A stretch of 64,000 nucleotides of DNA from an uncultured Fibrobacterota bacterium (GCA_963753345.1 CAVWBU010000035.1:96001-160000), one strand, 5' to 3'. Positions 490-61,307 are shown, numbered from the stretch's first letter. Notes: a model not told the origin generated them from the sequence alone. Numbers and translations: made by a program.

Positions 490-632
490 GGGGAAGCATC
501 CCCCTCGCTCCGGCCCGGCGCTCATATTTTCAAAGTTCATCTCATTCCGCACCGGTCCTGCGCTACCCCCTCCTGGGTGGCCGCCTTGACAATGCAGCTG
601 CGAGACCACGCACTGTTGTGGCGGCACCCACG
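490..632 (+). repeat. Intergenic structured repeat, solo module A
   Basis: GGGGAagcaTCCCC hairpin, variable stem, ctaccccctcctgggtggccgcc...ggcggcaccc; homologous to the other module A copies. Confidence 0.85.
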
Positions 633-640
633 AGCAGCAG

Positions 641-758
641 TTGAATAGCACAGCCCGCGCATTCCCCGCGACTTGGCGCGGGGTTAGCGGGCGAATATTT
701 GTTATTCTATTTCCTTAGCTATGGGAGAATCCCCGCCACTTGGGGCGGGGTTCTTCAA
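641..758. mobile_element. Small non-autonomous IS200/IS605-end-like (PATE/REP-like) element
   Basis: Bounded by TTGAA...TTCAA; two near-identical hairpins ccccgcg-acttgg-cgcgggg (664-683) and ccccgcc-acttgg-ggcgggg (731-750); related copy at 41701-41751. Confidence 0.5.
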
Positions 759-780
759 TGAAGATCAGGCAAAGTCAAGT

Positions 781-807
781 GTCATTGCGAGCGCAGCGAA
801 GCAATCT
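781..807. repeat. REP-like element, GTCATTGCGAG type
   Basis: gtcattgcgagcgcagcgaagcaatct; complementary-type half agatcgcttcgtcgcttcgctcctcgcaatgac at about 55974-56006. Confidence 0.6.
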
Positions 808-946
808 ACCGTTGAAATCATAGCTCATGATTTGAAGGAAAGGCACCTCTACGCCAACCAGCGACCTTGCCAGTGCCTACTTAAAGGGAACGCCTTGAAC
901 CTTTCTTGCTTATTCTGGAGGCACAAATGAACCAACGCATGATTCT

Positions 947-1717
947 GTGCGACTATTCAGAAGAGACTTGATGATGCCCGAATTGTTCCTTTCCCCTTTT
1001 CCGAATCCAAAGAGGCCGCTCATGCGATCCAAGTCCGTTGGAATCTCGATTATGATGATTCTGCTTTGCCTTTCCTTGTTTGCCGCCCCAAAGTCGCCGG
1101 TTGTTTTCAACAAGGAATACGCCAATTATGCTTGGGGGTATGTTCATTACGGCTGGCTCATCGATTCGGCGGGAAATATACGAAGCTACTCGTTTAACCA
1201 GGGTGACAGCATGGAAGTCCGGCTTCCGTATCCGAGTCAGGCGTATTTGGACAAGATGTTTTCTCTCAGCACGCCAACCGGAAAGAAAATTGCCGCGGAC
1301 ACAATGAGCGCCAAAACAGCGTTGCTTGCGTCCGCGGTCCAGGGTTTGGTGACGTACGCGGGCATGTGCGCGGATGCGGGAATAATGTCGTACGAAGGGA
1401 TTCTGTACGATTCCGCCCATTCAAGATACCAGAGAATAGTATGCTTCGAAGCAGGCGATCAGACCGCATGTAATTCTTCCCTTTCCGCAAAGCTGATCGC
1501 CAAATGGTTTATTTCCCTGGACTCCATACCCCCGAACTTCTGCTTGCCGCCGGATTCCTGCCTGAATACCACCGCTGTTGCGGGCAAGCCTTCTTTTCCC
1601 AAGGCCAGCGCCGCTCGTCTGAAGGCGCAAGCTGTCTACTATGTCAACGGTAAGAAGATTGCGGAAGCGGGAAAGAAACCTGTTGTGAAGACGAAAGCAG
1701 GGTTGATACAGCACTAG
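947..1717 (+). CDS. Secreted hypothetical protein with basic C-terminal sorting-like tail (true start probably about 1022-1055)
   Basis: Hydrophobic signal-like MMILLCLSLFAA; C-terminal VYYVNGKKI...K-rich segment. Confidence 0.65.
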   Translation: MRLFRRDLMMPELFLSPFPNPKRPLMRSKSVGISIMMILLCLSLFAAPKSPVVFNKEYANYAWGYVHYGWLIDSAGNIRSYSFNQGDSMEVRLPYPSQAYLDKMFSLSTPTGKKIAADTMSAKTALLASAVQGLVTYAGMCADAGIMSYEGILYDSAHSRYQRIVCFEAGDQTACNSSLSAKLIAKWFISLDSIPPNFCLPPDSCLNTTAVAGKPSFPKASAARLKAQAVYYVNGKKIAEAGKKPVVKTKAGLIQH

Positions 1718-1789
1718 AAGATTTCTGGATTAAGAGAAGAGTGTCAAGGGGGGGAAAGGCCAGCCTGTCTCAAAACTCAAGAGAAGATC

Positions 1790-2312
1790 TGGGCGCCCCG
1801 CCGAAGACGGCGGCGGTTCTCCTTCCGGTCCACCCCTTCGGGTGCTTCCAAGGGTCGTCGGCCTTCGGCCTCGGGCTGCCACGGCCCTATGGCCCAGAGG
1901 GCCGGGCCCGGGCAGCATCCCGCTCTAGCGGGACCTCCAGTCGCCCCTGGCGCAAATACCACTATTCGGGTATCACGTGGCTCTCACTATTCCGCTTGTG
2001 CAAGACCATATCTTCCGTAAGTTGTAAATGGTGCATACCGGGCACCGAGAAGAATTGCGGATTGAAGAGGAGAAAGTTCCTAACGGATTGCCTTGGAATT
2101 CCAGGTGGCGAAAAGATAAGATTGACTAATGATATTTCTTCTGCCGCGCGTTAGGTGGACCGGAGGGTGCGCTGGAGCGCATTGCCGCCTGACCCGGCCG
2201 AAGGACGGTTGGGACAGGCGGCAACGAGGCGAACAGCCGAGCCCGGAGGGAGACGACGCCACGAAGCACCCGAAGGGCCGTGGAACCGACCCCCGAAGCG
2301 GGGGAACGCCCA
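1790..2312. repeat. Inverted B/B pair of structured repeat modules (1790-1953 and 2106-2312)
   Basis: tgggcgcccc...ccccttcgggtgcttccaagg...ctccagtcgcccctggcgc faces ttctgccgcgcgttagg...ggggaacgccca. Confidence 0.85.
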
Positions 2313-2356
2313 ACGCTATTGTCTTTGCATTAGAAGAGAGACGCCCAATACTTTCT

Positions 2357-3117
2357 TTACTTCTTCTTTCCCGCCTTCCGAATCGCCGCCGCAATCTCTT
2401 TCATCGCGCCGATACCGCCTTTGGATTGCAGCAAATTTCCCGTCACGATGATGTCCGCGCCCGCGCGGATCTTTTCCATTGCGGTTGTCGCGTCCCGTAT
2501 GCCGCCGCCCACGATTACCGGGATGTCAACCGCCGAGCGCACCAGCGAGATCATCTCGTTGGGAACGGTGCTAAGTGCGCCGCTGCCCGCTTCGAGGTAG
2601 ACGAGCTTCATGCCCATGTACTGGGCGGCCAGCGCGTGGGCTGCCGCGATGTTCGGCTTGCTGCGCGGCAGCGGCCTGGTGTTGCTCATGAATTCGACCG
2701 AGGTCACGGTCCCGGACTCCACGAGCATGTAGGCCGTTGAAATCGGCTCGATGCCGAGTTGCTTGATAAGAGGCGCGGCCTTTACGTGCTCGCTGATGAG
2801 GTTGACCGGGTTTCTGCCCGAGATGAGGGAGAGGTACAGGAGCGCGTCGGCGTCGCCGGAAAGCTGGGTGGCGTCGCCGGGGAACAGGATAACCGGAATG
2901 CGGACCGACTTCTTGACCGATGCGACAAGCGGCGCGAACCGGTCGGTGCGGATGAGGCTGCCGCCGATGAGCAGGGCGTGGGCGCCCGCGGCCTCGGCCT
3001 GTTTCGCGATTGCGGCGCCTTCCTTGGGAGAAAAATCGTCGGGATCGAGAAGGACCCAGTAGGACGGGACCTTTGCGCCGGTTTTCTTCAGGATGGATTG
3101 CAATACGGAGTTTGATT

Positions 3118-3121
<4 letters not shown>
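2357..3121 (-). CDS. pcrB: Geranylgeranylglyceryl/heptaprenylglyceryl phosphate synthase (GGGPS, group II-like)
   Basis: LLDPD, IGGS, ILFPG, DALLYLSLISGRNP, YLEAGSGA, VGGGIR motifs. Confidence 0.9.
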
Positions 3122-5813
<2,692 letters not shown>

Positions 5814-5857
5814 TTAGATTCTGTTTCCTTTTTTTGATTCAATAAATAATAAAAAAT

Positions 5858-6290
5858 TGGGCGTTCCCCCGCTTTGCGGGGTCGGTCTCCCTCCGGGCTC
5901 GGCTGTTCGCCTCGTTGCCGGACCGCCCTATGCCTAGCGGCCGGGTCGGCCGGCAATTCGCTCTGGCTCACCCTCCGGTCCACCTAACGCAGTGGCAGAG
6001 GGGAATCTGTTCTGTCAAGATCATTTTTCGCGCCAACCCGGAGCTTCAGGCCGTCCGTCACGGCTTTTTGTTTCATCTATGAACAGCTAACCACCAACCG
6101 TCAACTCGCTTCGTCTTCCTGTTTCGCATTCAACTGTCGCTCGTGGGTGCCGCCACAACAATGCATGGTCTCGCAGCTGCTTTATCAAGGCGGACACCCA
6201 GGAGGGGGTAGCGAAAGACTGGCGCGTGGTTGATAGTATGCCGAATTTTTAAAACGCGCCAGGCTGGAGCGAGGGGGAGACTTCCCCCCA
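5858..6290 (-). repeat. A-spacer-B structured repeat unit between recA and alaS
   Basis: tgggcgttcccc...cacctaacgc (B) and gggtgccgcc...caggagggggtagcg...gggggagacttccccc (A, reverse). Confidence 0.9.
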
Positions 6291-6302
6291 TGAAACTCTA
6301 TT

Positions 6303-11453: not shown

Positions 11454-11568
11454 GATGAGAAAGCCTTTCTGTGGGGGTGGAATGGAAGATTTTCAAAATA
11501 ATTCAATGAAGGAAATGGGGGAGGTATTTAATGGGGCGACAAATACTAGAGAAAATCAAGAAATGATC

Positions 11569-11930
11569 GGGGGAGAAGTCTCTCCCCCGGCCTCGGCCGG
11601 CCCTGCCGTCCTTGGCACTCCCCTCTCAGGGGTGCACCCCTAGTGGATGCAGTGGCAAGAGTCAACTTCGGCTGGGGGGCACCCACGGGCGATAGTGGCA
11701 TGAGGAAATTACGGCTGTTTTCTTTGGTTCTTTGTTGCTTCTATAAGTTCTGGCGCAAGAAGAATACTTGACAAAACATATTCCTCTTGCCGCGCGTTAG
11801 GAGCGACTGGAGGCCGCGCCGGAGCGCGGTGCTGCCTGACCACGGCACGAAGTGCCCTCGTGGCAGGCAGCCCGAGGCCGAAGGCCGAGACCGGAAGGAG
11901 AACCGACCCCGCGTAGCGGGGGAACGCCCA
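11569..11930 (+). repeat. A-spacer-B structured repeat unit between divergent adk and amrS
   Basis: ggggagaagtctctcccc...ggggtgcacccc...ggggggcaccc; ttgccgcgcgttagg...ggggaacgccca. Confidence 0.85.
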
Positions 11931-12030
11931 GTTTTTTATCTTTATTGGTAATTTCCTCCCCTCGAAAACGAATAACTCCGTGGAAGGATCATGGAATTAT
12001 CTTTGTAATACAGGAATTAATTAAACCATC

Positions 12031-16775: not shown

Positions 16776-16793
16776 ATCGATAAGATATTTAAA

Positions 16794-17238
16794 GGGGGAG
16801 GTATCCCCCTCGCTCCGGCCGCTTTCAGCGTCCTGCGCTACCCCCTCCAGGGTAGCCGCCTTGACAAAGCAGCTGCAAGATCAAACATTTTTGTGGCGGC
16901 ACCCGAGAAAAGTAGTTGAGGAGTTGAGAAGAAAAAGCGTTTGATACTTGAAACGGTGAAAAGAAACAAAATCCGAAGAGGATATCCGGTAACTGATTCA
17001 TTGCGAATACGGGTTGGCGCAAGGAAGGTAATTTGACAGAATAGATTCCCCTCTGCCGCGCGCCAGGCAGGACTGGAAGGTGCGCTGGAGCGCATTGCCG
17101 CCTGACCACGCCCGAAGGGCCATAGTGGCGGGCGGCAACGAGGCCGCAGGCCGAGCCTGAAAGGAGGGCCGACGCCGCGAAGCGGCGGGGCGCCCAAGTA
17201 TTTTATTGATCTATTGACGAAGGCGAGGGGAACGCCCA
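16794..17238 (+). repeat. A-spacer-B structured repeat unit with an extra B terminus (17221-17238)
   Basis: gggggaggtatccccc...; spacer nearly identical to 20860-20960; ends ggggcgccca, then gaggggaacgccca. Confidence 0.9.
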
Positions 17239-20600: not shown

Positions 20601-20640
20601 TGGTGAAAGATGGGGAATTTTATACAGGATATGCTTTTGA

Positions 20641-21151
20641 TGGGGGACGTTTCCCCCTCGCTCCGGCCCGGCGCTAACATTCAGATTTTGGCATATCGTC
20701 AACTGCGCCGGTCCTGCGCTACCCCCTCCTGGGTGGCCCCCAAGAAGAAGTAGTTGCAGAACCAGACTCCTGCGTGGGGGCACCCAAGTAGATCGGCTGT
20801 GTTGAAACTTTCTTTACTTTGTCACTTTGTTACTATGTCACTCTTTTTCTGCGGCAGCACCGAGAAAAAGAGTTGAGGAGTTGAGAAGAAAAAGCGTTGA
20901 ATAGTTGAAACGTTGAAAAGAAATAAAATCCGAAGAGGATATCCGGAAACTGATTTATTGTGGATGCGGATTGGCGGTGGAAGAGGTAGTTGACTAATGG
21001 ATTTCTTCTGCCGCGCGCTAGGCAGGACCGTAGGGTGCGCTGGAGCGCATTGCCGCCTGATCCCTCGCCGAAGGCGGTAGGGACAGGCGGCAACGAGGCG
21101 AATAGCCGAGCCCGGAGGGAGGGCCGCCGCTGCGCAGCAGCGGGGCGCCCA
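20641..21151 (+). repeat. A-spacer-B structured repeat unit
   Basis: tgggggacgtttccccctcgctccggcc...gggtggccccca...tgggggcaccc; ...gagcgcattgccgcc...ggggcgccca. Confidence 0.9.
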
Positions 21152-21166
21152 GATTTTAGGTATTTA

Positions 21167-22995: not shown

Positions 22996-23035
22996 GATGG
23001 CTTTGTTTCCTTTCTTTTTGCTAATATGTTCTGGT

Positions 23036-23388
23036 GGGGACACCGCTTCGCGGTTTCCCCTGGGGTGCAGCTTCCTCCCGCCGATTTCGACGGGAGGTGA
23101 TCTGCACCCACACCCTTTCCAGCGGAAACCGTGCACGAGGCGCACCGTTTACACAGTGCGCGCGTGTCACGTTTCCGCAACGCCTTCGCTATGGAATGCC
23201 GCTTCGCGGCGATGAATGCGAAACGGCCCGACCTTACTTATTATCCGTCAACAACTCTCCTTGGGTGCCCCCCAGCCGCAGATTGATTCTTGCAACTACT
23301 CCATCTTGGGGGTCACCCAGGAGGGGGTAGCGCAGGACACCGCAGGCCGAAGGCCGAGGAGGCCGGAGCGAGGGGGAAACTTCCCCCA
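23036..23388. repeat. Inverted A/A pair of structured repeat modules (divergent forward A from 23036; reverse A 23261-23388)
   Basis: ggggacaccgcttcgcggtttcccc tggggtgcag...ctgcacccacaccc matches the 43393 copy; reverse A nearly identical to 61240-61307. Confidence 0.75.
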
Positions 23389-23406
23389 CATGAACATGAA
23401 TTGACA

Positions 23407-30044: not shown

Positions 30045-30050
30045 AGGCCG

Positions 30051-32795: not shown

Positions 32796-32811
32796 ATCAA
32801 AGAAGAAATAC

Positions 32812-33255: not shown

Positions 33256-33379
33256 AGTCTAATTCTTGATTTCCGAGCGCCACGAATCCTGATCATCCCT
33301 GATCGTGTGCCGAATGAAAACGACTCTCCTCATCATGCCTTCTGTTCCAGTTTGATCTTTATGGAAAGAATGTCTATGA

Positions 33380-35391: not shown

Positions 35392-35943
35392 TTGACTTCG
35401 CGAATGTTTTACAGAATTGCAGCGTTCCTTGCAGTCTTTGTCAGTGTTCCGTTTCTTGCCCTTGCGGGTGAGGAGATGTTTGAAGGACTTAAAATCACCA
35501 CCGACAACAAAGGTCACATTGCTTCGATTTCAGTCAGCAATCCCGATTCATATTTAAAGACCGAAGCCGAATTTCTCTTTTCCGTATCCCCCGATGGAAC
35601 TCCCACAAGCTGCACGATTACATTTAAGGACAATGTAAAGCGTCCCATGAAACACGGTGAAGTCGAGCTTCATTTTAAACAATGCGGAGGTCCCAACGCG
35701 GTATGGGACTACTATTCGCAACATGGGAAAACCGTGTCGTATCCGCCTGAAAACGACAAGCTTCCGCCCGAAGCCTATGGGAAAGTGTCCAGGATAATAT
35801 GTGTTGATGGGAGCCGATTCATCGGACGGCTCGCCCAATGGGCCAACAAACCCGAGGGCTTTTCACTTACTATGGAAGGAGCAAGTGGCGGTCCGATTCC
35901 GTTTTTCAACGGCAAGGTAAAAGAGATTCAGCAGATGAAGTAA
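35392..35943 (+). CDS. Secreted hypothetical protein, paralog 1
   Basis: Signal peptide; highly similar to 36210-36773; ends VKEIQQMK. Confidence 0.75.
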   Translation: MTSRMFYRIAAFLAVFVSVPFLALAGEEMFEGLKITTDNKGHIASISVSNPDSYLKTEAEFLFSVSPDGTPTSCTITFKDNVKRPMKHGEVELHFKQCGGPNAVWDYYSQHGKTVSYPPENDKLPPEAYGKVSRIICVDGSRFIGRLAQWANKPEGFSLTMEGASGGPIPFFNGKVKEIQQMK

Positions 35944-36209
35944 GAATAATGGCGCAATTGGGCAAGCAAAGAATAGTGTGAGATCAGGACAATTGGTTCG
36001 ATAAGGGAAAGTGTGATTCAGCACATCCGGAACAAAACTGTTGGATTGAAGGAAGGCTTCCACTCGATCTTCAGGCCTCTTTGCAAAGAAAACAAGTTCC
36101 CCTCCCACACAATCCCCAGACACCTGTGTGTGGAGGGATAGTCACCGCAGCCCACATGATCTTCGGTAATCCACTACCCCAGAAGCCGTCGACTCCTATT
36201 GGCGAAGGT

Positions 36210-36773
36210 TCATTTCATCTGTTGAATTTCCTTGACGGTTCCGTTGAAAAACTGGATCGGGCCGCAGCATGCGCCCTCTACAGCAAGTGAAAAGCCATCG
36301 GGTTTGTCGGCGAGTTTGGCGAGCCGACCGATGAACTGCTTTCCGTTATTGAGAATCAGCCTGGATATTTTTCCATAAGCGTCATCTGGGACCCTGTCGG
36401 TACCAAGGTTGAATGAGGTAGTTTTTCCATGCTGTGAGTAGTAGTCCCACACCGCAGTTTGACCGCCGTACTGTTGAAAATAGAACGTGAGTTCGCCGTC
36501 CTTCATGGGACGTTGGACCTTGTCTCTGAAAGTAATGGTGCCGCTTGTGGGAGTTCCGCCGGGAGACACGGAAATGAGGAACTCTGATTCGATGTTGAGG
36601 GTAGTGCCGGGATTGCTTATTGAAATCGAAGCAACGTGACCGCTGTAGTCGGTTGTGAGCTTAAGTCCCTCAAATTCCTCCTCTCCGGCGAAAACTACGA
36701 ATGGTATGCCGGCCACGACAGCAAGCGTAGTAACAAATCCGCACCACATTCGTGATTTCATACCTGCCTCCAT
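36210..36773 (-). CDS. Secreted hypothetical protein, paralog 2
   Basis: EEEFEGLKLTTD...AVWDYYSQHGKT...VKEIQQMK. Confidence 0.75.
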   Translation of the reverse strand: MEAGMKSRMWCGFVTTLAVVAGIPFVVFAGEEEFEGLKLTTDYSGHVASISISNPGTTLNIESEFLISVSPGGTPTSGTITFRDKVQRPMKDGELTFYFQQYGGQTAVWDYYSQHGKTTSFNLGTDRVPDDAYGKISRLILNNGKQFIGRLAKLADKPDGFSLAVEGACCGPIQFFNGTVKEIQQMK

Positions 36774-37246
36774 TTTTAGGTTGATGGGCCGCGTTAAAAG
36801 AGTCTTTCGCTTTCCGACGCCGGAGTTTGCTTTTGTCTCTTCAATCTATTTGACGCAGGAAACTGCTGATCGGTTGCTTTATATTGCTGTCCTATGTACG
36901 AAACTGCGGACCCGTCTATCGCGATGTTTTTTGGTGGCATAGCCTCATTGATAATATAATATAACGAAGAAGGGTTTGGGCTTGCCATGGAGCTGATGGA
37001 AAATCTCGCGACTATGCCGGGGATTGGATTGTCAGCCTTGAGCGCTTAAGCGTGGCTTGCAAGTGTTCCCCATTAACCTCTGGAGGCAAGATAACGGATT
37101 TTCAATATTTTTGGCGGCAACCTTATCGGGTACTATTGGTCAAAGATAAAGGAAGAGAGGATGCTAATCGGACTAGGATAAATGATCAAAGCAGAGCTAT
37201 TTTGATTACGACAGATCTTCAAAAATCATTTCCAAAGGAGGTTCCC

Positions 37247-37837
37247 ATGAATCTGTTAAGAACCAACGTTAGAACCACCCTCATGACGAACATGTTCATG
37301 GGAGCGTTTCTTCTTGTTGCGCTGGCGCCGCAAACGGGATCTTGTCAAAATAACGTTTGCGCTGTGCACCTCGACGCCAATGGCGTCATGACTTCCATGA
37401 CCGTCACCAATCCGCTCACCTCGCTGCAAATCGAAAAACAATTCGATTTTGATGTGGACAATCAGGGCAATCCGACAAAAGGGATTGTCACCTTCAAGAA
37501 GAGCCTGTATTACGGTGAAGTCCAGCGCGAGCTCAAAGTTCCGATTGAGCTGAACCTCATGTGGGAGCAGTTTGGAGGGCCGCAGGAATTTTGGAACAAC
37601 GCGGAAAAGAACGGGAGAATAGTTGCATACAATTCCGTGGAAGATCTTCCCAATGACGTTTTCGGCAAGAAGGTACGTCTCTTTCTTAAAGCCGCTTCGT
37701 CAGCGCATTTGACGGACTATATTGGGATATTGTCAAAGCCGGCAACCCATCCGGAATCCATCCTGCTCAATACAGGAGGCGCGCAACCGCTGCAAATAGA
37801 TAAAGGACTTATCCGCGAAATCCAGCGGCTTAAGTAG
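37247..37837 (+). CDS. Secreted hypothetical protein, distant paralog 3
   Basis: RBS aaggagg; shares SxTVxNP, QFGGP..W, LPxDxFGK, IREIQRLK with paralogs 1 and 2. Confidence 0.7.
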   Translation: MNLLRTNVRTTLMTNMFMGAFLLVALAPQTGSCQNNVCAVHLDANGVMTSMTVTNPLTSLQIEKQFDFDVDNQGNPTKGIVTFKKSLYYGEVQRELKVPIELNLMWEQFGGPQEFWNNAEKNGRIVAYNSVEDLPNDVFGKKVRLFLKAASSAHLTDYIGILSKPATHPESILLNTGGAQPLQIDKGLIREIQRLK

Positions 37838-37881
37838 GAAAGGCTCGAATTGCGTCGGGGTGGCGCAGGGGATTTGCATAA

Positions 37882-37993
37882 TTATTTGAGCACCCCCGGT
37901 TCATTCACCTTGAGCCATTCCATTCCTTTCCGGTTGCAATACAGGATGGCCCCGGGCTGGCCGCCTTGACGATCACGATCTCGAGACTGTTCC
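37882..37993 (-). pseudogene. Orphan 3-prime fragment of the 39827-40246 gene
   Basis: Diverged copy encoding ...RAILYCNRKGMEWLKVNEPGVLK-stop. Confidence 0.75.
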
Positions 37994-38096
37994 TTGCTTT
38001 GTCTCTATTTTTTTGCCCCCCTCTCCCGCATTTACCATATTTCCTTATCACGCCCAAACCGGAATAATTGTCGCTTCTTCAACAAAGGAGGTCCTC

Positions 38097-38402
38097 ATGA
38101 AATGGTACCATTATGTCGCGTGCTTTTTTGCAGGCCTGTTCCTGGCAAATTTTGTCCCGCATTATATTCACGGGGTATCCGGCGACGCCTTTCCCAGCCC
38201 GTTTGCAAACCCGCCGGGCAAAGGATTGTCCTCCCCCCTGGTCAATGTTCTGTGGGGGCTCGGCAACCTTGTGGTCGGATACATCCTGGCGCGCGCGGGC
38301 AAGCTTACAAAAGCGGACATTTGGGGGCTTCTCGTGTTCTTTGCCGGCGTGGCATTCATAAGCATACAACTGTCCTTTGCATTTGCGGGAAAGATGCATT
38401 AA
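38097..38402 (+). CDS. Small membrane protein
   Basis: RBS aaggagg; MKWYHYVACFFAGLFLANFVPH...FPSPFANPPGKGLSSP; three hydrophobic segments. Confidence 0.75.
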   Translation: MKWYHYVACFFAGLFLANFVPHYIHGVSGDAFPSPFANPPGKGLSSPLVNVLWGLGNLVVGYILARAGKLTKADIWGLLVFFAGVAFISIQLSFAFAGKMH

Positions 38403-38448
38403 AAGAAATCGGTCCCGCCGATACAACATTTTTCAGAGGTAGTTTGGC

Positions 38449-39510
38449 ATGAAAATCATTCTTGCCTTATTACTGTTTGTCTTGCCATGCCTTGTCTTTG
38501 CCGCTCCTCCGGCCGATCAAGGGTATAGTCTCACATGGTCCGACGAATTCAACGGCGCCGGCATTGATACCAATACATGGAGTTTCGATACGGGGTGCAC
38601 CTATGATGATAGCTATGAATATTATTCTCCGGGAAAAAATGTTTTCATTGAAAATGGGGCTGTCGTTCTTGAAGCAAGGAAAGAACCGGTCCGGCAGAGG
38701 TGCGGTAATTATTACACTTCCTGCAAAATGAATACCCTGGGAAAGGCGGAATTCAAGTACGGATACATGGAAATCCGGATGAAAAGTCCAAAGGGCGATG
38801 GACCTGTTCCCGAAATCTGGATGATGGGTTCGAACTACTCTCACGTGGCGTGGCCGACATGCGGTGAAATTGACTTATGTATACAAAGGACCGGTTCCCA
38901 ACTATACAACGGAACCCCTGGCGACAATTGTTTCGTCTCCTCATGTGACTTTAGTCATGGTCCCGGTACGGCGGATTACCGTTACCTCCAACATGACTAT
39001 TCAGAATGTCTATGCAACGATTATCATCTCTATGCCATCGAATGGGATTCGCTCAAGATACAGTACTTCTTCGATGACCAGAAATTCTGGGAATACGACT
39101 CGATTTGCCAGAGCGTCAATTTCGCCACATTTCATCAGCCATTCTTTTTTATCGCGAATATCACGATCGGAGGATCATATCAGGGGAATGTTATCGACAC
39201 AACCATTTTCCCCCAACGCATGTACATCGATTACATCCGGGTGTATCAGAAGAGCACCCCGGTAATCAACACACGACAAAAACGCACGCTTCCCGAATTG
39301 GCGCTTTTCAATTCATCCCGAGCCGGCCTTAACGTGTACGACCTGCAAGGCCGTTTTGTGGGCGATCTTTCCGGCTTGTCCGGCATGACTGAACATGATG
39401 GGGTTCTGTTCGTCAAGGCGGTAAAATCCAGGGTCCCGCAAGGAGTATATGTTGCAGCCGTTTCCAGCGGTGGGCAGTTCATCAATGAAAAGGTGGTCAT
39501 TAGGAAGTAA
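38449..39510 (+). CDS. Secreted GH16-family protein with atypical catalytic motif
   Basis: WSDEFNG, FKYGYMEIR, WPTCGEIDLCI, YHLYAIEW, MYIDYIRVYQ. Confidence 0.85.
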   Translation: MKIILALLLFVLPCLVFAAPPADQGYSLTWSDEFNGAGIDTNTWSFDTGCTYDDSYEYYSPGKNVFIENGAVVLEARKEPVRQRCGNYYTSCKMNTLGKAEFKYGYMEIRMKSPKGDGPVPEIWMMGSNYSHVAWPTCGEIDLCIQRTGSQLYNGTPGDNCFVSSCDFSHGPGTADYRYLQHDYSECLCNDYHLYAIEWDSLKIQYFFDDQKFWEYDSICQSVNFATFHQPFFFIANITIGGSYQGNVIDTTIFPQRMYIDYIRVYQKSTPVINTRQKRTLPELALFNSSRAGLNVYDLQGRFVGDLSGLSGMTEHDGVLFVKAVKSRVPQGVYVAAVSSGGQFINEKVVIRK

Positions 39511-39562
39511 AGCGGGATGGGCCTACGTTTTCTTGATTGACAAAAACAGCGCTACCCTTTGT

Positions 39563-39786
39563 CCAGAAACCTCGGCTGGCGCAAGAAAAGTAATTTGACA
39601 GAACAGATTTCCGTTGCCGCCGCGTTAGGGGCGACTGGAGGCCGCGCAGGAGCGCGGTGCCGCCCGACCACGGCCCGCAGGGCCATCGTGGCAGGCGGCC
39701 CGAGGCCGAAGGCCGACGACCCTTGGAAGCACCCGAAGGGGTGGACCGGAAGGAGAACCGACCCGGCTTTAGCCGGGGAACGCCCA
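39563..39786 (+). repeat. Solo module B with part of the spacer
   Basis: ccagaaacctcggctggcgcaagaaaagt (as at 32972)...gcgttagg...ggggaacgccca. Confidence 0.85.
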
Positions 39787-39826
39787 AATCTTTTCCTTGG
39801 TATTTAGATTGGGGGGATTTGTATCA

Positions 39827-40246
39827 TTACTTGAGTGTGTCAATGACCCCCGGCTCATTCACTTTGAGCCATTCCATTCCCTTACGGTTGCAATACAGGA
39901 TGGCTCTGGGGCTGGCCGGCTTGACGATCACGATCTCCAGGCTGTCTTTGGTGTTCCATTCCACACGGTAGTAGTATTCCCCTTTTGTCGGTTTCCCGAT
40001 TTTTGTTTCGATGGAGGCCTTCAGGTTGTCGATAACGGCCTTGTTCTTGAGCGGGCAGACCGTGATCATGTCCCGCAGCACCGAATCGATGACCACGTTC
40101 CGCATCGAATAGATGAGCGATAAATTCGTGGTCTCGATAATCGGCCTTCCCACGGAATCCTTGACGATATACGTTACTGCGTGCTGGGCATGGGCGGGGA
40201 CGACAAACGCGACGACGATGCACATAAGGAGCGAATGGTTTTTCAT
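39827..40246 (-). CDS. Secreted hypothetical protein
   Basis: Signal peptide MKNHSLLMCIVVAFVVPAHA. Confidence 0.7.
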   Translation of the reverse strand: MKNHSLLMCIVVAFVVPAHAQHAVTYIVKDSVGRPIIETTNLSLIYSMRNVVIDSVLRDMITVCPLKNKAVIDNLKASIETKIGKPTKGEYYYRVEWNTKDSLEIVIVKPASPRAILYCNRKGMEWLKVNEPGVIDTLK

Positions 40247-40390
40247 GATGTTCCTTCCGGAAACCGGGCCATGACCGACTTTGAAGAAAATATAGCTATG
40301 CGCGCTCCTTATTGTCAAATCCGACGATAACGCCGCCCTGGAAGAAGACTTCGAGCCGGTAATTTACTCATTGTCAAGATTCGTTATTTC

Positions 40391-41530
40391 CTATTTCATA
40401 AATAAAAACGTCCGGGCAATGTCCTGTCTCCCGCCCGTTGGCCGTGCAATGTAGCTTCCCGCGGGAACAGGCGCGCCGCTGGTATTCGTTCCCCGCCAGA
40501 CGGCCGTAGTGCCCTGCACGGGCACCCGCGCCACGATGCGGCCATGGATGTCGTAAATGTAAAGAGCGGAATACGGATTTTCCTTGGGGAGATTGAACGT
40601 CACCCCGAACGAATTACAATAGACTGCAGTTGCGGGCGTGCCTTCTTTTGTTGCTGCGGACGCTGGCCTGCGAACAGAGGTAAGAACCGTGGCCGGGTCA
40701 ATCAATTGTTTGGTCTTGGCAGCCGATCCCCAATAGCCCACCCCGGGATTCTGGATTCCTCCGGTACTGTCCTGAAACACGCGCGAATAATCTGTTGTCA
40801 AGGTCATCGGCCATATCGTCGAGCTGTTCGGAAGGCCGGGCCAGGATCCGCCTATCGCTACATCGTACATAAGCCACATGAAGTCATTCGTATTGTCGGA
40901 TGAAACGTCGCAATGTTTCGTCGCTATGCCGTCTATGTACCAGGTCACTCCGGAGGATGTCCACAAAAATCCATAGATATGATAGACGTTGTTGTTGCCG
41001 CTGAGCTTGTTGCTGGATAGATCAGCGCAGGTGTCAAGACCTCCCGCGGTTATGTGCGGGGTTTGATAGCACGTCAGGGAATCCGATGCAAACTCGAAGA
41101 TGTCCCACTCCGGCGGCCAGCGGGATGTCGAGCTCAGCCAGTATGCGGGCCACGAGCCCTGGGTCACTTTCATTTTTATCCGGCTTTCAAAATAGCCGTG
41201 CTTGAATGAAGGGACCGCGGAAAAATAACCGGAAGAGGAATCCTTTCTCCCTTCAATGGTGATCGCGCCGTTGCCTGCGACAAGATTGCTTCCGTCCGTG
41301 GTGACATGTTCGATGCCGTAGCTGCCGCCCGGCCAGCTGGCATTCGTTTTCATCCAACGATCGGTGCTGAGAGAGTCGCTGTTGAATTCGTCGCTGAAGA
41401 CAAGGTGATATCCAGACGGAACATATGAAATTCCGGGGTCGGGCTGGTCGGTGGCAGTTGCGATGAATGGGAACAAGACAACTGTTAGAAAGAGGAAGGG
41501 CAGGCCTACAGTGGAAATTTTCTTCTGCAT
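40391..41530 (-). CDS. Secreted GH16 glycoside hydrolase with C-terminal FlgD-Ig-like sorting domain
   Basis: FSDEFN, GYFESR, WPAYW, PPEWDIFE (intact ExDxxE), HIYGFLW, IYDIHGRIV...WRG. Confidence 0.88.
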   Translation of the reverse strand: MQKKISTVGLPFLFLTVVLFPFIATATDQPDPGISYVPSGYHLVFSDEFNSDSLSTDRWMKTNASWPGGSYGIEHVTTDGSNLVAGNGAITIEGRKDSSSGYFSAVPSFKHGYFESRIKMKVTQGSWPAYWLSSTSRWPPEWDIFEFASDSLTCYQTPHITAGGLDTCADLSSNKLSGNNNVYHIYGFLWTSSGVTWYIDGIATKHCDVSSDNTNDFMWLMYDVAIGGSWPGLPNSSTIWPMTLTTDYSRVFQDSTGGIQNPGVGYWGSAAKTKQLIDPATVLTSVRRPASAATKEGTPATAVYCNSFGVTFNLPKENPYSALYIYDIHGRIVARVPVQGTTAVWRGTNTSGAPVPAGSYIARPTGGRQDIARTFLFMK

Positions 41531-41700
41531 GACAGGAAAATATGATGCAGTGGGGGAGCAGGTCAAATGGTATTATCTGAGATTCCGGGTCAGGAATGTA
41601 ATATGAATCGCGTATTGTTTTGCACCCCCAAACGAATACCCCGAAAAATCTGGACGAATGTATTTTCTGAGCGTATCTTAATGACTTGAGAGTATTGGTT

Positions 41701-41751
41701 TTGAATCCCACAGCGAGCGCATTCCTCGCAGCTTGCTGCGGGGATCTTCAA
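41701..41751. repeat. Short TTGAA...TTCAA-bounded hairpin element related to 641-758
   Basis: cacagcgagcgcattcctcgcagcttgctgcggggatcttcaa. Confidence 0.55.
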
Positions 41752-41794
41752 TTCGCTTCAAGTCGATGAGAAGAGAAAACTACCGGACGCCATC

Positions 41795-42139
41795 ATGGAA
41801 ATACTAACTCGGAAAATTACAACCGCCTCTCTCAAATCAATGGCGGAAGAAACGTTCGGCAATCTGGTGAAGGCTGTTGTGGATGTGCGGTTAAGCAAGA
41901 TGGCGGTGGACGCAGAGCTGCATTCGGACGAAGAAGCTTTGCTCCTGGAAAGCGGGTCCCTGCAGCAGGACTTGTGGGGAATCAACATCTACCCAGAGTA
42001 CGAAAAGACAAGCGCCAGCTTTGTCGAATTTGATTCCATGATCAATGTACGTCCCTCGCAGGGAAACAGGAGCCGCGGCGTTGAGAACGCCCAAACCCGT
42101 GAAAAGATACTTGCCGTCGTCCATGAGTGGATTTCATGA
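41795..42139 (+). CDS. DUF5674-like protein
   Basis: VKAVVDV, ELHSDEEALLLE, DLWGINIYP, FDSMINVRPSQGNRSR. Confidence 0.7.
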   Translation: MEILTRKITTASLKSMAEETFGNLVKAVVDVRLSKMAVDAELHSDEEALLLESGSLQQDLWGINIYPEYEKTSASFVEFDSMINVRPSQGNRSRGVENAQTREKILAVVHEWIS

Positions 42140-42495
42140 ATTATCAGCATAAGCAGCTTGCCCAAGGCCGCTGGAAGGAATTCTCCTTTGTTGAACAGAT
42201 GGGTAATATCGGAAGCGAAATCGAGCGGACGATTCTCTGGAAGGAAAAGGGCAATCCGGATTACAGTAATCTTGCATTTGAGCGGGCGCTTGAGTTGCTC
42301 GATCTGACGATCGACAACGCAAAAACCGGATCTCGCCTGAGGGAACTCACCCGCACGCGTGAAGCGCTTGTAGACCATTTTATCTTTTCCAATGAATACG
42401 GCACAACGGACGAATGCTGGAGGAAATATTTTTTCTGTTTTGCCTATGCGGCCCGGGTGCGGAAAGCAAATGGCGTAATCACGTCGGCCACGTAG
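42136..42495 (+). CDS. Conserved hypothetical helical protein coupled to the DUF5674-like gene
   Basis: ATGA overlap; EQMGNIGSEIER, AFERALELLDLT, ELTRTRE. Confidence 0.7.
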   Translation: MNYQHKQLAQGRWKEFSFVEQMGNIGSEIERTILWKEKGNPDYSNLAFERALELLDLTIDNAKTGSRLRELTRTREALVDHFIFSNEYGTTDECWRKYFFCFAYAARVRKANGVITSAT

Positions 42496-42511
42496 AACCT
42501 TGGGAGGTTCC

Positions 42512-43376: not shown

Positions 43377-43392
43377 TACAATAATTCTTTGA

Positions 43393-43813
43393 GGGGGGGA
43401 GGTGTCCCCCTAGGGTGCGGCTTCCGGCGCCTCCTTAACAAATGCGCACAAGAATAGAACTCGGAGGCGCCGGCGATCCGCACCCATACCCCCTCGTGGG
43501 TAGCCCCCAAGGAAGTTTATCAGCAAGAAAGAAACATCAGCTGCGGGGGCGCCGAGAAAGAGAGTTGAAAAGTCAAAGATGAAGCCAGACTGATTTGTTA
43601 TACATATAGATTGGCGTGAGAACAAGTAGTTGACTAAATAGATTCCTCCTGCCGCGCGTTAGGGACGACGGAAGGTGTGCTGGAGCACATTGCCGGCCGA
43701 CCCGGCCGAAGGCATAGGGCGGTCCGGCAACGAGGCTGACCAGCCGAGCCTGGAGGAGAACCGACCCCAAGTAGAGCCGCACGGCCGTGCGGCTCTACTT
43801 GGGGGAACGCCCA
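43393..43813 (+). repeat. A-spacer-B structured repeat unit with a nested GTAG-type palindrome (43765-43804)
   Basis: gggggaggtgtccccc tagggtgcgg...ccgcaccc; B ending ccccaagtagagccgcacggccgtgcggctctacttgggggaacgccca. Confidence 0.9.
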
Positions 43814-43852
43814 AATGTTTATCTTATTAATAGAAAAGGGAATCTAGCATTC

Positions 43853-52670: not shown

Positions 52671-52779
52671 GGCGGAGCTTTCTCCTTGGATAAGCTTGTA
52701 AAGTACAGTTTCAAAATAGCAATCGCAGGGAAGGGATAACAATAGTAAAATATTTGCGGATAATTATGATGTTGTTGGA

Positions 52780-53190
52780 GGGGGAAGTATCCCCCTGGGG
52801 TCCAGCCAGCCGGCGCAATTTAGCGACACATCATGATGTGCCATTTTTTTTCGGCCGCCGGTTGTCTGGACCCACACCCCCTCCTGGGTGGCCCCCAAGA
52901 GAGTTGGTCGGCAAGATGGTAACTTCTGACGCGGGGGCACGGAGAAAGAGAGCTGGAAGTTGACAGTTGAAAGTTGAAGGCTGGCGCGAGAAATAACAAT
53001 TGACTGAATACATTTCTTATGCCGTGCGTTAGGGGCGACTGGAGGTCCCGCCAAAGCGGGATGCCGCCCGGACCCGGCCCTGCGGGCCATAGGGCCGTGG
53101 CGGCCCGAGGCCTACGGCCGACGACCCTTGGAAGCACCCGAAGGGGTGGACCGGAAGGAGAACCGACCCCGCGAAGCGGGGGAACGCCCA
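52780..53190 (+). repeat. A-spacer-B structured repeat unit
   Basis: gggggaagtatccccc tggggtccag...ctggaccc; B subtype shared with 1790 and 39563; ends ggggaacgccca. Confidence 0.9.
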
Positions 53191-53204
53191 ACTCTTACTC
53201 CTTA

Positions 53205-54481: not shown

Positions 54482-54610
54482 ATTGAGAATTGTTGATTGA
54501 TGATTGCGAAATGCGGATTGAAGAGGTAAAAATCATTCCACTAAAGATGTTTTCAAATCCGCAATCCGAATTCCGCAATCTGCAATCTACATTCTACAAT
54601 CTACAATTTA
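54482..54610. repeat. Inverted arrays of degenerate heptamer repeats (AATCCGC/AATCTAC)
   Basis: attgagaattgttgattgatgattgcgaaatgcggatt ... aatccgcaatccgaattccgcaatctgcaatctacattctacaatctacaatt. Confidence 0.7.
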
Positions 54611-54619
54611 AATTCTTCC

Positions 54620-55735: not shown

Positions 55736-55747
55736 TATGAAAAGACT

Positions 55748-56181
55748 TGGGCGTTCCCCCGCTCCGCGGGGTCGGTCTCCCTACAGGCTCGGCCGTTCGG
55801 CCTCGTTGCCGGACCGCCCTAGTCGCCTGCGGCGAGGGTCGGCCGGCAATTCGCTTTTGCTCACCCTCCGGTCCACCTAACGCGCGGCAGAAGAAATCTA
55901 TTCAGTCAATCTACATCGTTGCGCCGTCCGGAATCCTTGGGGAGGCTAATTTTTTGACCGTCAACTCCTCAGGAGATCGCTTCGTCGCTTCGCTCCTCGC
56001 AATGACATGTTTTCTTCACACAATCCATGCTCTGAATTCCACAATCCTTCTCGGTGCCCCCGCAGCCCAAGCTTCTTTCTCGCAAATCAACTTGCTGGGG
56101 GGCTACCCACGAGGGGGTGTGCCCCGAGACCCCGCAGACCTTAGGTCGAGGAGGCTCGGGGCCAGGGGGACGCTTCCCCCA
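55748..56181 (-). repeat. A-spacer-B structured repeat unit with a nested REP-like half at about 55974-56006
   Basis: tgggcgttcccc...cacctaacgcgcggcagaag; ...cccacgagggggtgtgccccgag...ctcggggccagggggacgcttccccc. Confidence 0.9.
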
Positions 56182-56199
56182 CCAACATTTACTTATCCG

Positions 56200-58797: not shown

Positions 58798-58973
58798 GAC
58801 AATTGCTTCCGGACCAGACGACAAACGGTCAGCACGGGTACAGAACAATAACGACATGCCCATACCACAGTGTATTTGGACAGATATGCCTTGAGTATAC
58901 CACGGCTTAAGCAGTTTTACAACGAAATCGATTTTGTTCGTCAATATGGGGGGGTAAGTCTCAAAGGCTTTGT

Positions 58974-59070
58974 TGGGGGAAGTATCCCCCTGCCTGAGGC
59001 ACCCGAAGGGGTGGACCTTAAGGAGGGCCGACCCGAGCCTGAGCGCTCGCAAGGGCGAGGGGAACGCCCA
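58974..59070 (+). repeat. Internally deleted A-B unit (A hairpin fused to the B terminus)
   Basis: tgggggaagtatccccc then gcacccgaaggggtggacc...gaggggaacgccca. Confidence 0.8.
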
Positions 59071-59098
59071 ATACATTTAGCATAGCAGGAAGAGACAC

Positions 59099-60100
59099 CT
59101 AGCGCGCAAGAAACGGCGCCAGCGCAAGGTAGGCAAGGCCGGCGAACATCGCCGACGCGGGGATGGTGAGGATCCACGCCCATACAATCTTGCGGGCAAC
59201 GATCCACCTGACGCTCGCGGCGTGCTCAACCGCCCCCACGCCCATGATGGAGCCGGCAATCACATGCGTGGTGCTTACCGGAATGCCGAAATGCGCTGTT
59301 CCGATGAGGACGAGCGCGGACGCGGAGCTCGAGCAGAACCCTTCCATTTCCCGGATCTTGGTGATGCTCGTGCCCATGGTCTTGACAATGCGCCAACCGC
59401 CGAACACGGTGCCGAGGGAAATGGCCGTATAGGCCGAAAAAACGACCCAATCCGGGATCACAAAGGACGACGTAACGCCCCCGGTGAAAAGAGCAAGCGC
59501 AATGATGCCCATGGTCTTCTGGGCATCGTTGGTGCCGTGTCCGATACTGGAGAATATCGACGCGATAAGCTGGAGCGCCTTGAACCTTCTGGCGTTTTTT
59601 GCCGGATGTGATTTCCTGAAAATCCATAATGTCAAGGTCGTGAATATGGCGGCGCCGATGCCGCCGAGTACAGGCGCAATGAAAATAAAAAGGAATATTT
59701 TCAATACGCCGCCCCATATCACGACGTTTGTTCCGACCGCCGCTATGCCGCTGCCCACAAGCCCTCCAATGAGCGCATGGCTGCTGGAGGTGGGCAGACC
59801 GATCAGCCAGGTACAGATGTCCCACAATACGGCGCCAAGGAGCGAGGCCAAAAGCAGCGGCAGCGTTACCTGGTCGAAATGGACAACGCCTTTCCCGATC
59901 ATGGTGGCAACGGCAAGACCGAACGTGAAGTATCCTATGAAGTTCGCGGCGCCGGCAAGGATCACGGCCTGCAGGGGCGTAAGGGTCTTGGAGACGACGA
60001 TGGTGGCAATCGCGTTGGCCGCATCGTGGAACCCATTGACAAAATCGAACAGGAGCGCGACGACGACGACGATTACAACAAGGGTGAATGAGGATGCCAC
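59099..60100 (-). CDS. pit: Inorganic phosphate transporter (PiT family)
   Basis: NGFHDAANAIAT, GLPTSSSHALIGG, HGTNDAQKTMG, GIPVSTTH. Confidence 0.95.
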   Translation of the reverse strand: MASSFTLVVIVVVVALLFDFVNGFHDAANAIATIVVSKTLTPLQAVILAGAANFIGYFTFGLAVATMIGKGVVHFDQVTLPLLLASLLGAVLWDICTWLIGLPTSSSHALIGGLVGSGIAAVGTNVVIWGGVLKIFLFIFIAPVLGGIGAAIFTTLTLWIFRKSHPAKNARRFKALQLIASIFSSIGHGTNDAQKTMGIIALALFTGGVTSSFVIPDWVVFSAYTAISLGTVFGGWRIVKTMGTSITKIREMEGFCSSSASALVLIGTAHFGIPVSTTHVIAGSIMGVGAVEHAASVRWIVARKIVWAWILTIPASAMFAGLAYLALAPFLAR

Positions 60101-60104
60101 GGGC

Positions 60105-60746
60105 CTATCCCTGCTTCACCTTGATGCCGCGTATCAGCTTGCCCACATAGTCGATGGCGTCCACCACCGATTCAAGGTGCTCGTACACTTCCTTGAATTT
60201 GATGATGTGGATGGGATCCTTCTCCTTGAACAGCTCGGCCATGCTCACATGAAACAGCTCGTCCGCCTCTATTTCGAGTTCATGCATGCGGGTTGCGACT
60301 TCCCCGATGCTTTTGTGCGTCTTGAGCTGCCGGACGGCGTTGTTCATTTCCGCCGCGATTTTCACGATGATGTCGGCGAATTTCCACACGTTGGCGGGAA
60401 CGTTGCGGATCTGGTAAATTTCGATTTTTCGTGATATGCTGTTGAGGATGTCGAGCGCGCGATCCACGTTGATCGCGAGAGTGTGGATGTCTTCCCTGTC
60501 AATGGGCGTGATGAAGGTCTTGTTGAGCTCCTCAATGATGGTCCGCTCGACCACGTCGCCGCTGGACTCGCAGTCCTTGATGACCAGCAGTTCCTTCTTG
60601 ATCGCGTCTTCGGAAAGCGTTTCAATCTTGCCCACGAGTTCCTTAAAGGTAAAGCACCCCTTTTCCAGCAATCCCACCTGCTGCTCCATGTAGGTGAAAA
60701 ACTTGGTCTCGCGTGGAAGCAGCAGGTCGAAGATGTTAAAGCCCAT
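60105..60746 (-). CDS. DUF47 phosphate transport regulator
   Basis: LNKTFITPIDREDIH, LEIEADE, KEVYEHLE; upstream of pit. Confidence 0.92.
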   Translation of the reverse strand: MGFNIFDLLLPRETKFFTYMEQQVGLLEKGCFTFKELVGKIETLSEDAIKKELLVIKDCESSGDVVERTIIEELNKTFITPIDREDIHTLAINVDRALDILNSISRKIEIYQIRNVPANVWKFADIIVKIAAEMNNAVRQLKTHKSIGEVATRMHELEIEADELFHVSMAELFKEKDPIHIIKFKEVYEHLESVVDAIDYVGKLIRGIKVKQG

Positions 60747-60866
60747 GTGAGGTCCCTTTCAATGAAGAATTGCGGGCGGCTAAAAGCCAAGTAATATAAT
60801 AAAAAACTAATCAAAATCAAACGAAGGGCTAATAGATTATAGATAGGTAGAAAAGAGAAGAAGAGT

Positions 60867-61307
60867 TGGGCGTTCCCCGCAAATGCAGAGACGTAGCGCG
60901 CTACGTCTCTGCATTTGCGGGTCGGTCTCCCTTCGGGCTCGGCTATTCGCCTCGTTGCCGCCTGTCCCAACCGCCTTCGGCGAGGGATCAGGCGGCAATT
61001 TGCTCCTGCTCACCCTCCGGTCCACCTAACGCGCGGCAACCGGAATTCTATTCTGTCAACAACTTCTTCTCGCGCCAATCGGCAAGCCAGTAAATCAGTT
61101 ATGGTCTTTCTTTTCAACCTTTTCTCTTCTCAACTTTTTTCGCTTCAACTATTCGACGTTTTTTCTTCCCAACTACGCTCCATGGGTGCCGCCACAACAA
61201 TGCATGGTCTCGCAGCCGCTTTGTCAAGGCGGCTACCCAGGAGGGGGTAGCGCAGGACACCGCAGGCCGAAGGCCGAGGAGGCCGGAGCGAGGGGGAGAC
61301 TTCCCCC
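60867..61307 (-). repeat. A-spacer-B structured repeat unit with a nested 46-bp perfect palindrome (60876-60921)
   Basis: tgggcgttcccc gcaaatgcagagacgtagcgcgctacgtctctgcatttgc gggtcgg...; A reverse to gggggagacttccccc. Confidence 0.9.

Follow-up and report, generated by a model that had tools for sequence, protein, structure and literature searches.

What kind of sequence fills the gaps between ordinary genes, copy after copy, in an uncultured Fibrobacterota bacterium? The question is raised by a stretch of 64,000 nt (GCA_963753345.1 CAVWBU010000035.1:96001-160000), here called the window, which belongs to a draft genome of 4,516,072 nt in 55 contigs that is 94% complete (genome G000; the window is G000:C35:96001-160000). 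A preliminary description of the window had reported 14 intergenic loci with large bipartite elements, composed of modules A and B, and had considered both a multi-copy structured RNA and a very large repeat mobilised in trans. We find that the modules are two families of non-coding, self-folding interspersed repeats that are gained and lost between ordinary genes, and that their fold is conserved by compensating changes even between the closest copies.

Both modules keep their fold through compensating changes

We used covariance models of B (R1, built from seven copies in the window; 149 positions, 42 pairs) and of A (R2; 157 positions, 27 pairs). In the window, R1 at E<=1e-5 recovered 12 full copies of B, a module of about 145 nt with nine helices, and R2 recovered 11 full copies of A, a module of about 150 nt. 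All 14 loci hold at least one module, as had been described, but the full copies number 11 and 12 and not 13 of each; the layouts are not uniform, and nine loci are composites in which A is followed by B (A>B). A further R2 match at 23026-23336 (+), with 20.9 bits, was left uncounted because it overlaps a real copy on the opposite strand. Three sequence blocks are far more frequent in the window than expected: TGCCGCGCGTTAGG (up to two mismatches) has nine matches against 0.88 expected, GGGGAACGCCCA (up to one mismatch) 11 against 0.52, and YACCCCCTCSTGGGT (up to two mismatches) 11 against 0.34. None of 100 shuffles equalled the observed number for any of them.

For B, 47 copies (44 distinct) were aligned to R1, and slid controls were made by shifting the pairing partners by 1-3 columns. 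Standard pairs occupy 97.0% of the 1814 cells, against 36-52% in the slid controls; 23 of the 42 pairs change on both sides, those of the long-range closing helices included, and none of 500 shuffles matched the covariation score. The outermost helix, with two variable pairs, alternates between GCGUU/AACGC and GCGCC/GGCGC (21 and 20 of the 44 copies at these two pairs). The 5' and 3' ends of B pair together and close the fold, and since the long-range helices covary, B is a closed multi-junction fold rather than a string of hairpins. The 27 distinct copies of A give 85.3% paired cells, where the slid controls give 41-59%, and changes on both sides are seen in 12 of its 27 pairs; because the alignments were fitted to the models and the copies are related, the counts for both modules overstate the number of independent events. 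G-U cells exceed A-C cells in B (38 against 8) and in A (74 against 21), which indicates that the fold belongs to one strand.

The signal persists at short evolutionary distance. Between 35 nearest-neighbour pairs of B, the difference is 5.8% at paired columns and 14.5% at unpaired columns. When the 100 base pairs that differ between these neighbours are classified, 49 are compensated on both sides, 12 have changed on one side and remain paired, mainly as G-U wobbles, and 39 are broken in one copy or in both. Short-patch gene conversion between copies could partially mimic compensation in local hairpins. Pairing far above the slid controls, together with compensated changes between the closest copies, bears out the selected structure proposed in the preliminary description. 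Of the four compensating pairs that it had listed for A, three were found (gggtgcgg/ccgcaccc in the copy at 43393, gggtccag/ctggaccc in that at 52780, and gccccgag/ctcggggc in that at 56181), but gggtgcag/ctgcaccc was not seen in the 11 aligned copies. The switch between tgcgc/gcgca and tgtgc/gcaca in B is present, and the same loops do hold inserts that differ greatly in length: one copy has a 66-nt insert in its helix-7 loop, and seven of the 44 copies have helix-9 loops of 24-34 nt.

Triloops of the form C(GNA)G close 32 of the 44 helix-7 loops and 18 of the 44 helix-9 loops of B; loops of this form recall very stable DNA mini-hairpins. RNAalifold applied to copies aligned with a hidden Markov model found almost no structure because variable stems were misaligned, and the covariance-model alignments were used instead. 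ARAGORN detected no tRNA-like or tmRNA-like gene in the window, which leaves the CCA at the end of B without support as a tRNA-like end.

A and B are separate families that are often joined

The genome-wide count suggested with the preliminary description gave 282 matches to A and 415 to B with nhmmer, split evenly between the strands. Full-length copies number roughly 230 for B and 260 for A. The loci found by BLAST sum to 126,713 of the 4,516,072 nt, which is about 2.8% of the genome. When modules scoring 40 bits or more were grouped, they gave 433 arrays, comprising 193 A>B composites, 134 copies of B alone, 75 of A alone and 25 pairs of B placed head to head; six further layouts were seen once or twice. 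Where A and B are joined, the order is always A then B. These layout counts argue that A and B are separate families that are often joined, and not the halves of one element as was first thought.

The interval between joined modules contains a purine-rich tract, often in 8-nt tandem units (GTTGAGAA, GTTGAAAC), followed by a TGGCG..TTGAC block. In 30 cases A and B lie 300-6000 nt apart; the intervening open reading frames (ORFs) are unrelated and nothing consistent is encoded there. Signals in the flanks are weak: an A-rich stretch and tttTgGt or TCATGT precede the first hairpin of A on its 5' side, and AnTCTTttt follows the 3' end of B. Intrinsic terminators have a GC-rich stem with a T run directly behind it; a T-rich tail begins 3-10 nt 3' of the last helix of B, and the first hairpin of A was flagged as a terminator once, on the opposite strand.

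Contigs assembled from four DNA runs stop at the repeats, where depth rises 10 to 50-fold. No clean empty-site joint was present in these contigs, and the joints listed link one repeat copy to another.

Orthologous sites are filled or empty among congeners

Comparison with genomes of the same genus, at orthologous loci as the preliminary description had suggested, shows elements gained or lost in the manner of mobile DNA. The element at 5853-6298, between recA and the next gene, has no counterpart in G002, G003 and G004, in which only a few bases separate these genes; G005 carries a diverged element at this site. The site of 16784-17238 is empty in G004, and that of 23036-23397 is empty in G003. 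The element at 43385-43818 is absent from its site in G002 and G003, and other small modules occupy the site in G004. The congener G003, which is 99% complete, gave no B match among the candidates scored (76 of 284 in one search and 20 of 282 in another), and neither A nor B occurs in 104 kb of its syntenic contig.

The 53 ORFs scanned in the window belong to ordinary genes by Pfam, including recA, adenylate kinase, aconitase, enzymes of the shikimate pathway, glycoside hydrolases and sensor kinases. None of the 53 has a transposase or integrase domain, in agreement with the transposase-free window reported before.

Module B is related to the Flavo-1 motif

A resemblance between the reverse of B and intergenic repeats of Flavobacteria had been suggested. 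The likeness is real and points to Flavo-1, but it lies on the same strand as B and not on its reverse. The Flavo-1 RNA motif (RF01705; Weinberg et al. 2010, PMC2864571) is multi-copy, intergenic and found in either orientation to genes, as are the modules described here. A study of Flavobacterium psychrophilum describes Flavo-1 in the same terms and places its copies sense or antisense to transcribed regions, with many outside them (PMC9723704).

Direct searches with Rfam do not reveal the relationship. Nothing in the window reaches the gathering threshold, Flavo-1 included, which the preliminary description had named for this check; two single elements gave no Flavo-1 match at E<=10 and matched other families at chance level only (Twister-sister, 16.4 bits against a threshold of 34), and the Flavo-1 model had no match among 150 candidates scored across the whole genome. 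The relationship is seen from the other side. In named genomes, an exact pattern of the three end blocks of B, with 27 fixed bases, matches at least 89 stretches, which come from Fibrobacterota, Bacteroidota and Spirochaetota. The carriers among Fibrobacterota include Chitinivibrionales, Fibrobacteres and Fibrobacter metagenome-assembled genomes (MAGs), and Fibrobacter intestinalis ATCC 43854; elsewhere they include Bacteroidales, Flavobacterium, Lutibacter, Pedobacter, Treponema and Treponemataceae. These stretches share their ends (GCGUUAGGGAU... and ...AGCCCGACCC-hairpin-GGGGAACGCCCA) and have unrelated interiors. Those from Flavobacterium and Lutibacter (L126, L151) score 47 bits for Flavo-1, against a threshold of 42, on the strand of B.

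Independently of the pattern, R1 has 12 matches in the Bacteroidales genome G156, 18 in G155 and three in F. intestinalis. All eight of the G156 loci that were fetched carry a Flavo-1 match at the same place and on the same strand, six of them at or above 42 bits; no Flavo-1 match was found at the R1 loci of G155 (0 of 9) or G153 (0 of 3). Flavo-1 and B have a common core, with UUAGGGAU... on the 5' side and ...AGCCCGA on the 3' side of the same closing helix. The Rfam model, with 76 positions, covers the inner part of the fold and lacks the outer GCGUU/AACGC helix, the 3' hairpin and GGGGAACGCCCA. Because R1 finds genuine members of Flavo-1, the end motifs are common to both and the Rfam model covers the inner fold only, sequence comparison places B in the Flavo-1 kind, as a long form that is rich in GC, enlarged and diverged. 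It differs from Flavo-1 in its GC-rich interior of up to nine helices, its Fibrobacterota host and its hundreds of copies, and also in its fusion, in the usual case, with module A and a tandem tract.

Within the phylum, R1 found B in four of five other genomes of the genus among the matches listed; in other families of the order it found forms that are smaller and match more weakly. Of 151 genomes of the phylum, 17 gave matches, and all but two of these belong to the order. Throughout the order, B conserves its unpaired blocks and its 3' end, and helices are gained and lost.

Module A also has relatives, which stand alone and measure about 110 nt. R2 found eight in F. intestinalis, nine in G155, six in a Treponemataceae MAG (G157) and one in G156, that is, in four genomes outside the order, three titled Bacteroidota or Spirochaetota and one Fibrobacter. 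They carry the same blocks, GGGGGAAGnnUCCCCCUCGCUCC...GCUACCCCnUCUCCUAGGGG; their bit scores are low (18-33), so that the kinship is read mainly from these visible common blocks. Rfam gave no family match at the relatives of A. In the Treponemataceae MAG, some 800 nt separate an A-type element from a near-threshold match to the Rfam TD-2 motif (L202:2389-2510; 42.5 bits against 48.7).

That the Flavo-1 kind exists was known already. What is new is the long form with its outer helix and 3' hairpin, its Fibrobacterota host and its massive, diverged expansion, as well as the fusion of B with an uncatalogued second module, A, and the tandem tract. In the literature on Chitinivibrionales (titles and abstracts), on intergenic repeats of Fibrobacterota and on Flavo-1 we found no description of these repeats in Fibrobacterota.

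Layout of the individual loci

R1 and R2 together define the nine A>B composites. Six lie on the plus strand, with A at 11561-11704 and B at 11788-11935; A at 16784-16924 and B at 17054-17201; A at 20632-20805 and B at 21009-21156, separated by an 8-nt tandem tract at 20863-20920; A at 32804-32947 and B at 33024-33260, the latter with a large insert in its helix-7 loop; A at 43385-43573 and B at 43650-43818, in the gap between a Sua5/YrdC-family gene and a MazG-family gene (Pfam); and A at 52770-52961 and B at 53020-53195. The composite at 16784-17238 has a purine-rich GTTGAG tract from about 16903 and a second GGGGAACGCCCA at 17227-17238, on the 3' side of B. The three composites on the minus strand are those next to recA, identified by Pfam (B 5853-5997, A 6125-6298), at 55743-56190 (B 55743-55889, A 56033-56190) and at 60862-61317 (B 60862-61038, A 61164-61317).

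The remaining five loci have other layouts. A stands alone at 479-649 (+), with 128.9 bits for R2 and an nhmmer match to A at 487-645. B stands alone at 39563-39791 (+), where R1 places the core at 39615-39791 behind a TGGCG..TTGAC leader. Two copies of B, without A, lie head to head at 1785-1961 (-) and 2142-2317 (+), with 107.3 and 92.1 bits for R1 and a 180-nt spacer. At 1741-1790, the outer end of a B copy adjoins another small module, the fourth, GGGGGAAAGGCCAGCCTGTCTCAAAACTCAAGAGAAGAT, which is also seen next to further B ends and, in G004, at the site that corresponds to 43385-43818.

At 23036-23397 (-), A (23243-23397, by R2) is followed by a stretch, 23036-23242, which had been taken for B. 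R1 finds no B there, and the stretch is a different, third repeat module, C, that ends in ...CGGTGTCCCCACCAGAA. The GGTG(C/T)CCCCACCAAGA end of C also adjoins several copies of B genome-wide. The last locus, 58974-59070 (+), was read directly from the sequence, with GGGGAACGCCCA at 59059-59070. An internal deletion has left a 97-nt derivative here that passes straight from the first hairpin of A into the 3' part of B, and only the two outer ends are kept.

Other features of the window deserve mention. A 7-nt tandem array of AATCTGC, in about seven copies, lies at 54556-54615, and its reverse complement resembles the GATTGCGGA tandem motif, which lies upstream of B at some of its lone copies and also occurs in G002. 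A stretch of about 12.5 kb (about 30000-42500), with GH30, TPR, two GH16 and DUF5674 genes and two repeat loci, has no counterpart in G002, G003 and G004, whose syntenic contigs pass directly from about 29800 to about 42500; this could be an island or a rearrangement. An alanyl-tRNA synthetase gene (3118-5811, minus strand) is split into three consecutive ORFs, at 5416-5811, 4357-5391 (tRNA-synt_2c from profile position 186) and 3118-4314 (tRNA_SAD, DHHA1). The DNA of this region (2382-5834) aligns with G004 in one piece, and the split may reflect assembly frameshift errors or a broken gene.

Interpretation of the modules

Our tentative preference is to regard the modules as dispersed elements similar to repetitive extragenic palindromes (REPs) and bacterial interspersed mosaic elements (BIMEs), with a single-stranded fold under selection. 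Like the REPs, BIMEs and REP doublets called REPINs of enterobacteria and Pseudomonas, which are associated with RAYT transposases, the modules are high-copy intergenic palindromes that are enriched after gene ends, modular and sometimes arranged as inverted pairs, lack target duplications and are conserved in place. REPs, however, are single hairpins of 20-40 nt with a conserved GTAG, whereas the modules are multi-helix folds of 145-150 nt. The present elements further differ from REPINs in that no RAYT or Y1 gene was found in G000, inverted pairs make up only 25 of 433 arrays, and the copies are far more diverged than REPIN populations. Under the preferred reading, the modules would once have been dispersed as single-stranded nucleic acid, with an enzyme provided in trans to handle them, and would be retained at present because the folded strand acts at each site. 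The most plausible role would be that of punctuating transcripts or exposed single-stranded DNA between genes, by end protection, termination or insulation; a role as a free small RNA gene seems less plausible.

The position of the modules relative to genes can be given from counts that rest on a crude ORF model, which called 77% of the genome coding: between genes of the same direction, A lies with the genes in 101 cases and against them in 35, and B in 112 and 65 cases, respectively; convergent gaps hold 26-29% of the modules and make up 15.7% of all gaps genome-wide.

Besides the crudeness of this gene model, several observations weigh against the reading of the modules as REP/BIME-like elements. 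The copies show no sign of recent copying, with a median pairwise identity of 0.67 for A and 0.70 for B, and a median identity to the nearest neighbour of 0.87 and 0.85; where a neighbour reaches 0.97 or above, the contigs concerned are nearly always small or redundant. Target duplications of 5 nt or longer were not found, words of 5-8 nt common to both flanks being as frequent as in shuffled-pair controls (115 full elements), though shorter ones of 2-4 nt may exist, and CATG, which is frequent at the left end, is unmatched at the right end. Without target duplication, insertion is indistinguishable from precise deletion. A search for an enzyme was also negative. Y1_Tnp (PF01797) has no match in G000, and no A or B lies within 1.5 kb of the Y1_Tnp genes of G002, G004 and G005; the TnpB zinc-ribbon domain is absent from G000, G002, G003, G004 and G005, and RVT_1 from G000 and G005; there is one IS110-type gene in G000 and none in the element-rich G004. 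Fold stability does not depend on context: the minimum free energy is -0.53 to -0.55 kcal/mol per nt whether copies lie sense (n=52), antisense (n=17), convergent (n=39) or divergent (n=31) to their neighbours, which weakens a role dependent on read-through from a flanking gene. Finally, the hints as to RNA or DNA conflict: the many G-U pairs and the elaborate architecture of the junctions speak for RNA, whereas the C(GNA)G triloops, the direction-independent quality of the fold and the published remark on Flavo-1 expression speak for DNA.

In G002, six identical genes (e.g. L054, L057, L060, L061) encode a 144-aa Y1 transposase of the IS200 type; they represent an active insertion sequence (IS) and are unrelated to A and B.

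The marks of a REPIN or of a miniature inverted-repeat transposable element (MITE), which the preliminary description had considered, are missing: target-site duplications, near-identical copies beyond redundant contigs, and a Y1 or RAYT gene in the genome. Similarity between the ends of an element is confined to an A-rich tract and TTGGnnG, where a MITE of a DDE transposon would have terminal inverted repeats and a target-site duplication. Nor did the searches for Y1_Tnp, TnpB, RVT_1 and IS110-type genes find a RAYT/HUH or other nuclease gene flanked by modules, and 124 ORFs beside 20 copies in three genomes of other phyla gave a single pair and no recurrent ORF. Viral contigs had no exact match to the 27-base end pattern of B. 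Among other repeats, Correia, ERIC (enterobacterial repetitive intergenic consensus) and similar co-transcribed miniature elements of Neisseria and enterobacteria also lie between genes, even within operons, and are carried into mRNAs as folded segments, a position comparable to that between recA and the next gene; they have clear terminal inverted repeats, TA duplications and similar copies, whereas the present elements have no duplication, weak end similarity and high divergence.

The modules, and B especially, might instead be functional RNAs, transcribed from their own promoter or processed from longer transcripts, that act in trans or bind protein, with the purine-rich GUUGAGAA tract as a protein-binding platform; we consider this a less probable, though serious, alternative. 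The nine-helix multi-junction fold of B with unpaired blocks conserved across the order, the frequent and one-sided G-U pairs and the indifference of fold quality to the direction of neighbouring genes all suit an RNA gene, as do the conserved TGGCG..TTGAC block 20-45 nt upstream of B, the T-rich tail behind it and the filing of Flavo-1 as a small RNA in Rfam. Against this, a scan of 19 kb detected no sigma-70-like promoter inside any element, and TTGAC has no -10 partner at 16-18 nt; where B copies form head-to-head pairs, the strand of each copy lacks the TTGAC block. There would be no precedent for a trans-acting RNA present in hundreds of diverged copies. The F. psychrophilum copies, being either sense to transcripts or antisense, with many outside them, also fit poorly with an RNA gene (PMC9723704).

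We regard it as unlikely that the modules are purely selfish, still active single-stranded DNA elements, of the REPIN, IS200/IS605-derived or integron attC-like kind, whose fold is the substrate of an HUH enzyme or tyrosine recombinase and whose covariation reflects the survival of copyable lineages only. Such an element would fit the conservation of the ends across phyla with a free interior, the pairing of these ends that closes the fold, the absence of target duplication, the deletion derivative that retains both ends, the predominance of C(GNA)G loops, the patchy distribution within the genus and the 25 inverted pairs of B. Faithful copy-and-paste would however be expected to leave identical pairs, and no copy has a relative above about 93% identity save assembly duplicates. 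No Y1 gene is present in G000 or lies beside the elements in congeners. IS200/IS605-type elements have a strong strand bias, whereas 60-62% of the modules agree with GC skew, barely more than the 57% of genes, and G000 has no TnpA or TnpB. The attC sites of integrons, such as the Vibrio cholerae repeats, resemble B in that only the paired ends are conserved, the interior is variable and one strand folds, and also in lying after genes, mostly co-oriented, in hundreds of copies. The attC consensus is RYYYAAC...GTTRRRY, and attC sites form arrays next to an intI gene, whereas B reads 5' GCGTT...AACGC 3' on both strands, with the opposite polarity, and its copies are scattered among housekeeping genes and not gathered in one array.

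A derivation from the guide RNAs of transposons (omega RNA of TnpB or IscB, bridge RNA of IS110), as protein-less relics, is very improbable and already largely refuted. In its size and multi-helix fold B falls within the range of such RNAs, and one IS110-type gene exists in the genome, but neither A nor B lies within about 2 kb of that gene, and G004 is rich in elements without having one; the five congener genomes searched have no TnpB domain, no ORF recurs beside the copies in the three other genomes, and Rfam gave no match to HEARO or any other family.

A wider proposal goes beyond the REP/BIME-like reading and is more speculative than it. The Flavo-1-type (B) and A-type repeats might be two members of an undescribed class of self-closing elements that fold as single strands in Fibrobacterota, Bacteroidota and Spirochaetota, are used by their hosts and selected at each site whatever the direction of the genes, and are handled, together with the 8-nt tandem tracts, by a dedicated protein system common to these phyla; we think this unlikely as a whole.

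Significance for the Flavo-1 family and its hosts

Flavo-1 has been an orphan motif since 2010. The form present in this genome is much larger and includes an outer closing helix and a conserved 3' hairpin and tail, parts that are absent from the Rfam model. Its hundreds of diverged, still-paired copies provide a far richer alignment for the full Flavo-1-type fold, and the natural sites that are filled in one congener and empty in another are material for a study of gain and loss. Module A is a second family with the same behaviour and without a catalogue entry, and the relatives found here link repeats of three phyla that had been seen separately before. Since the repeats break short-read assemblies and create spurious ORFs, annotating them would lead to better genomes of these groups.

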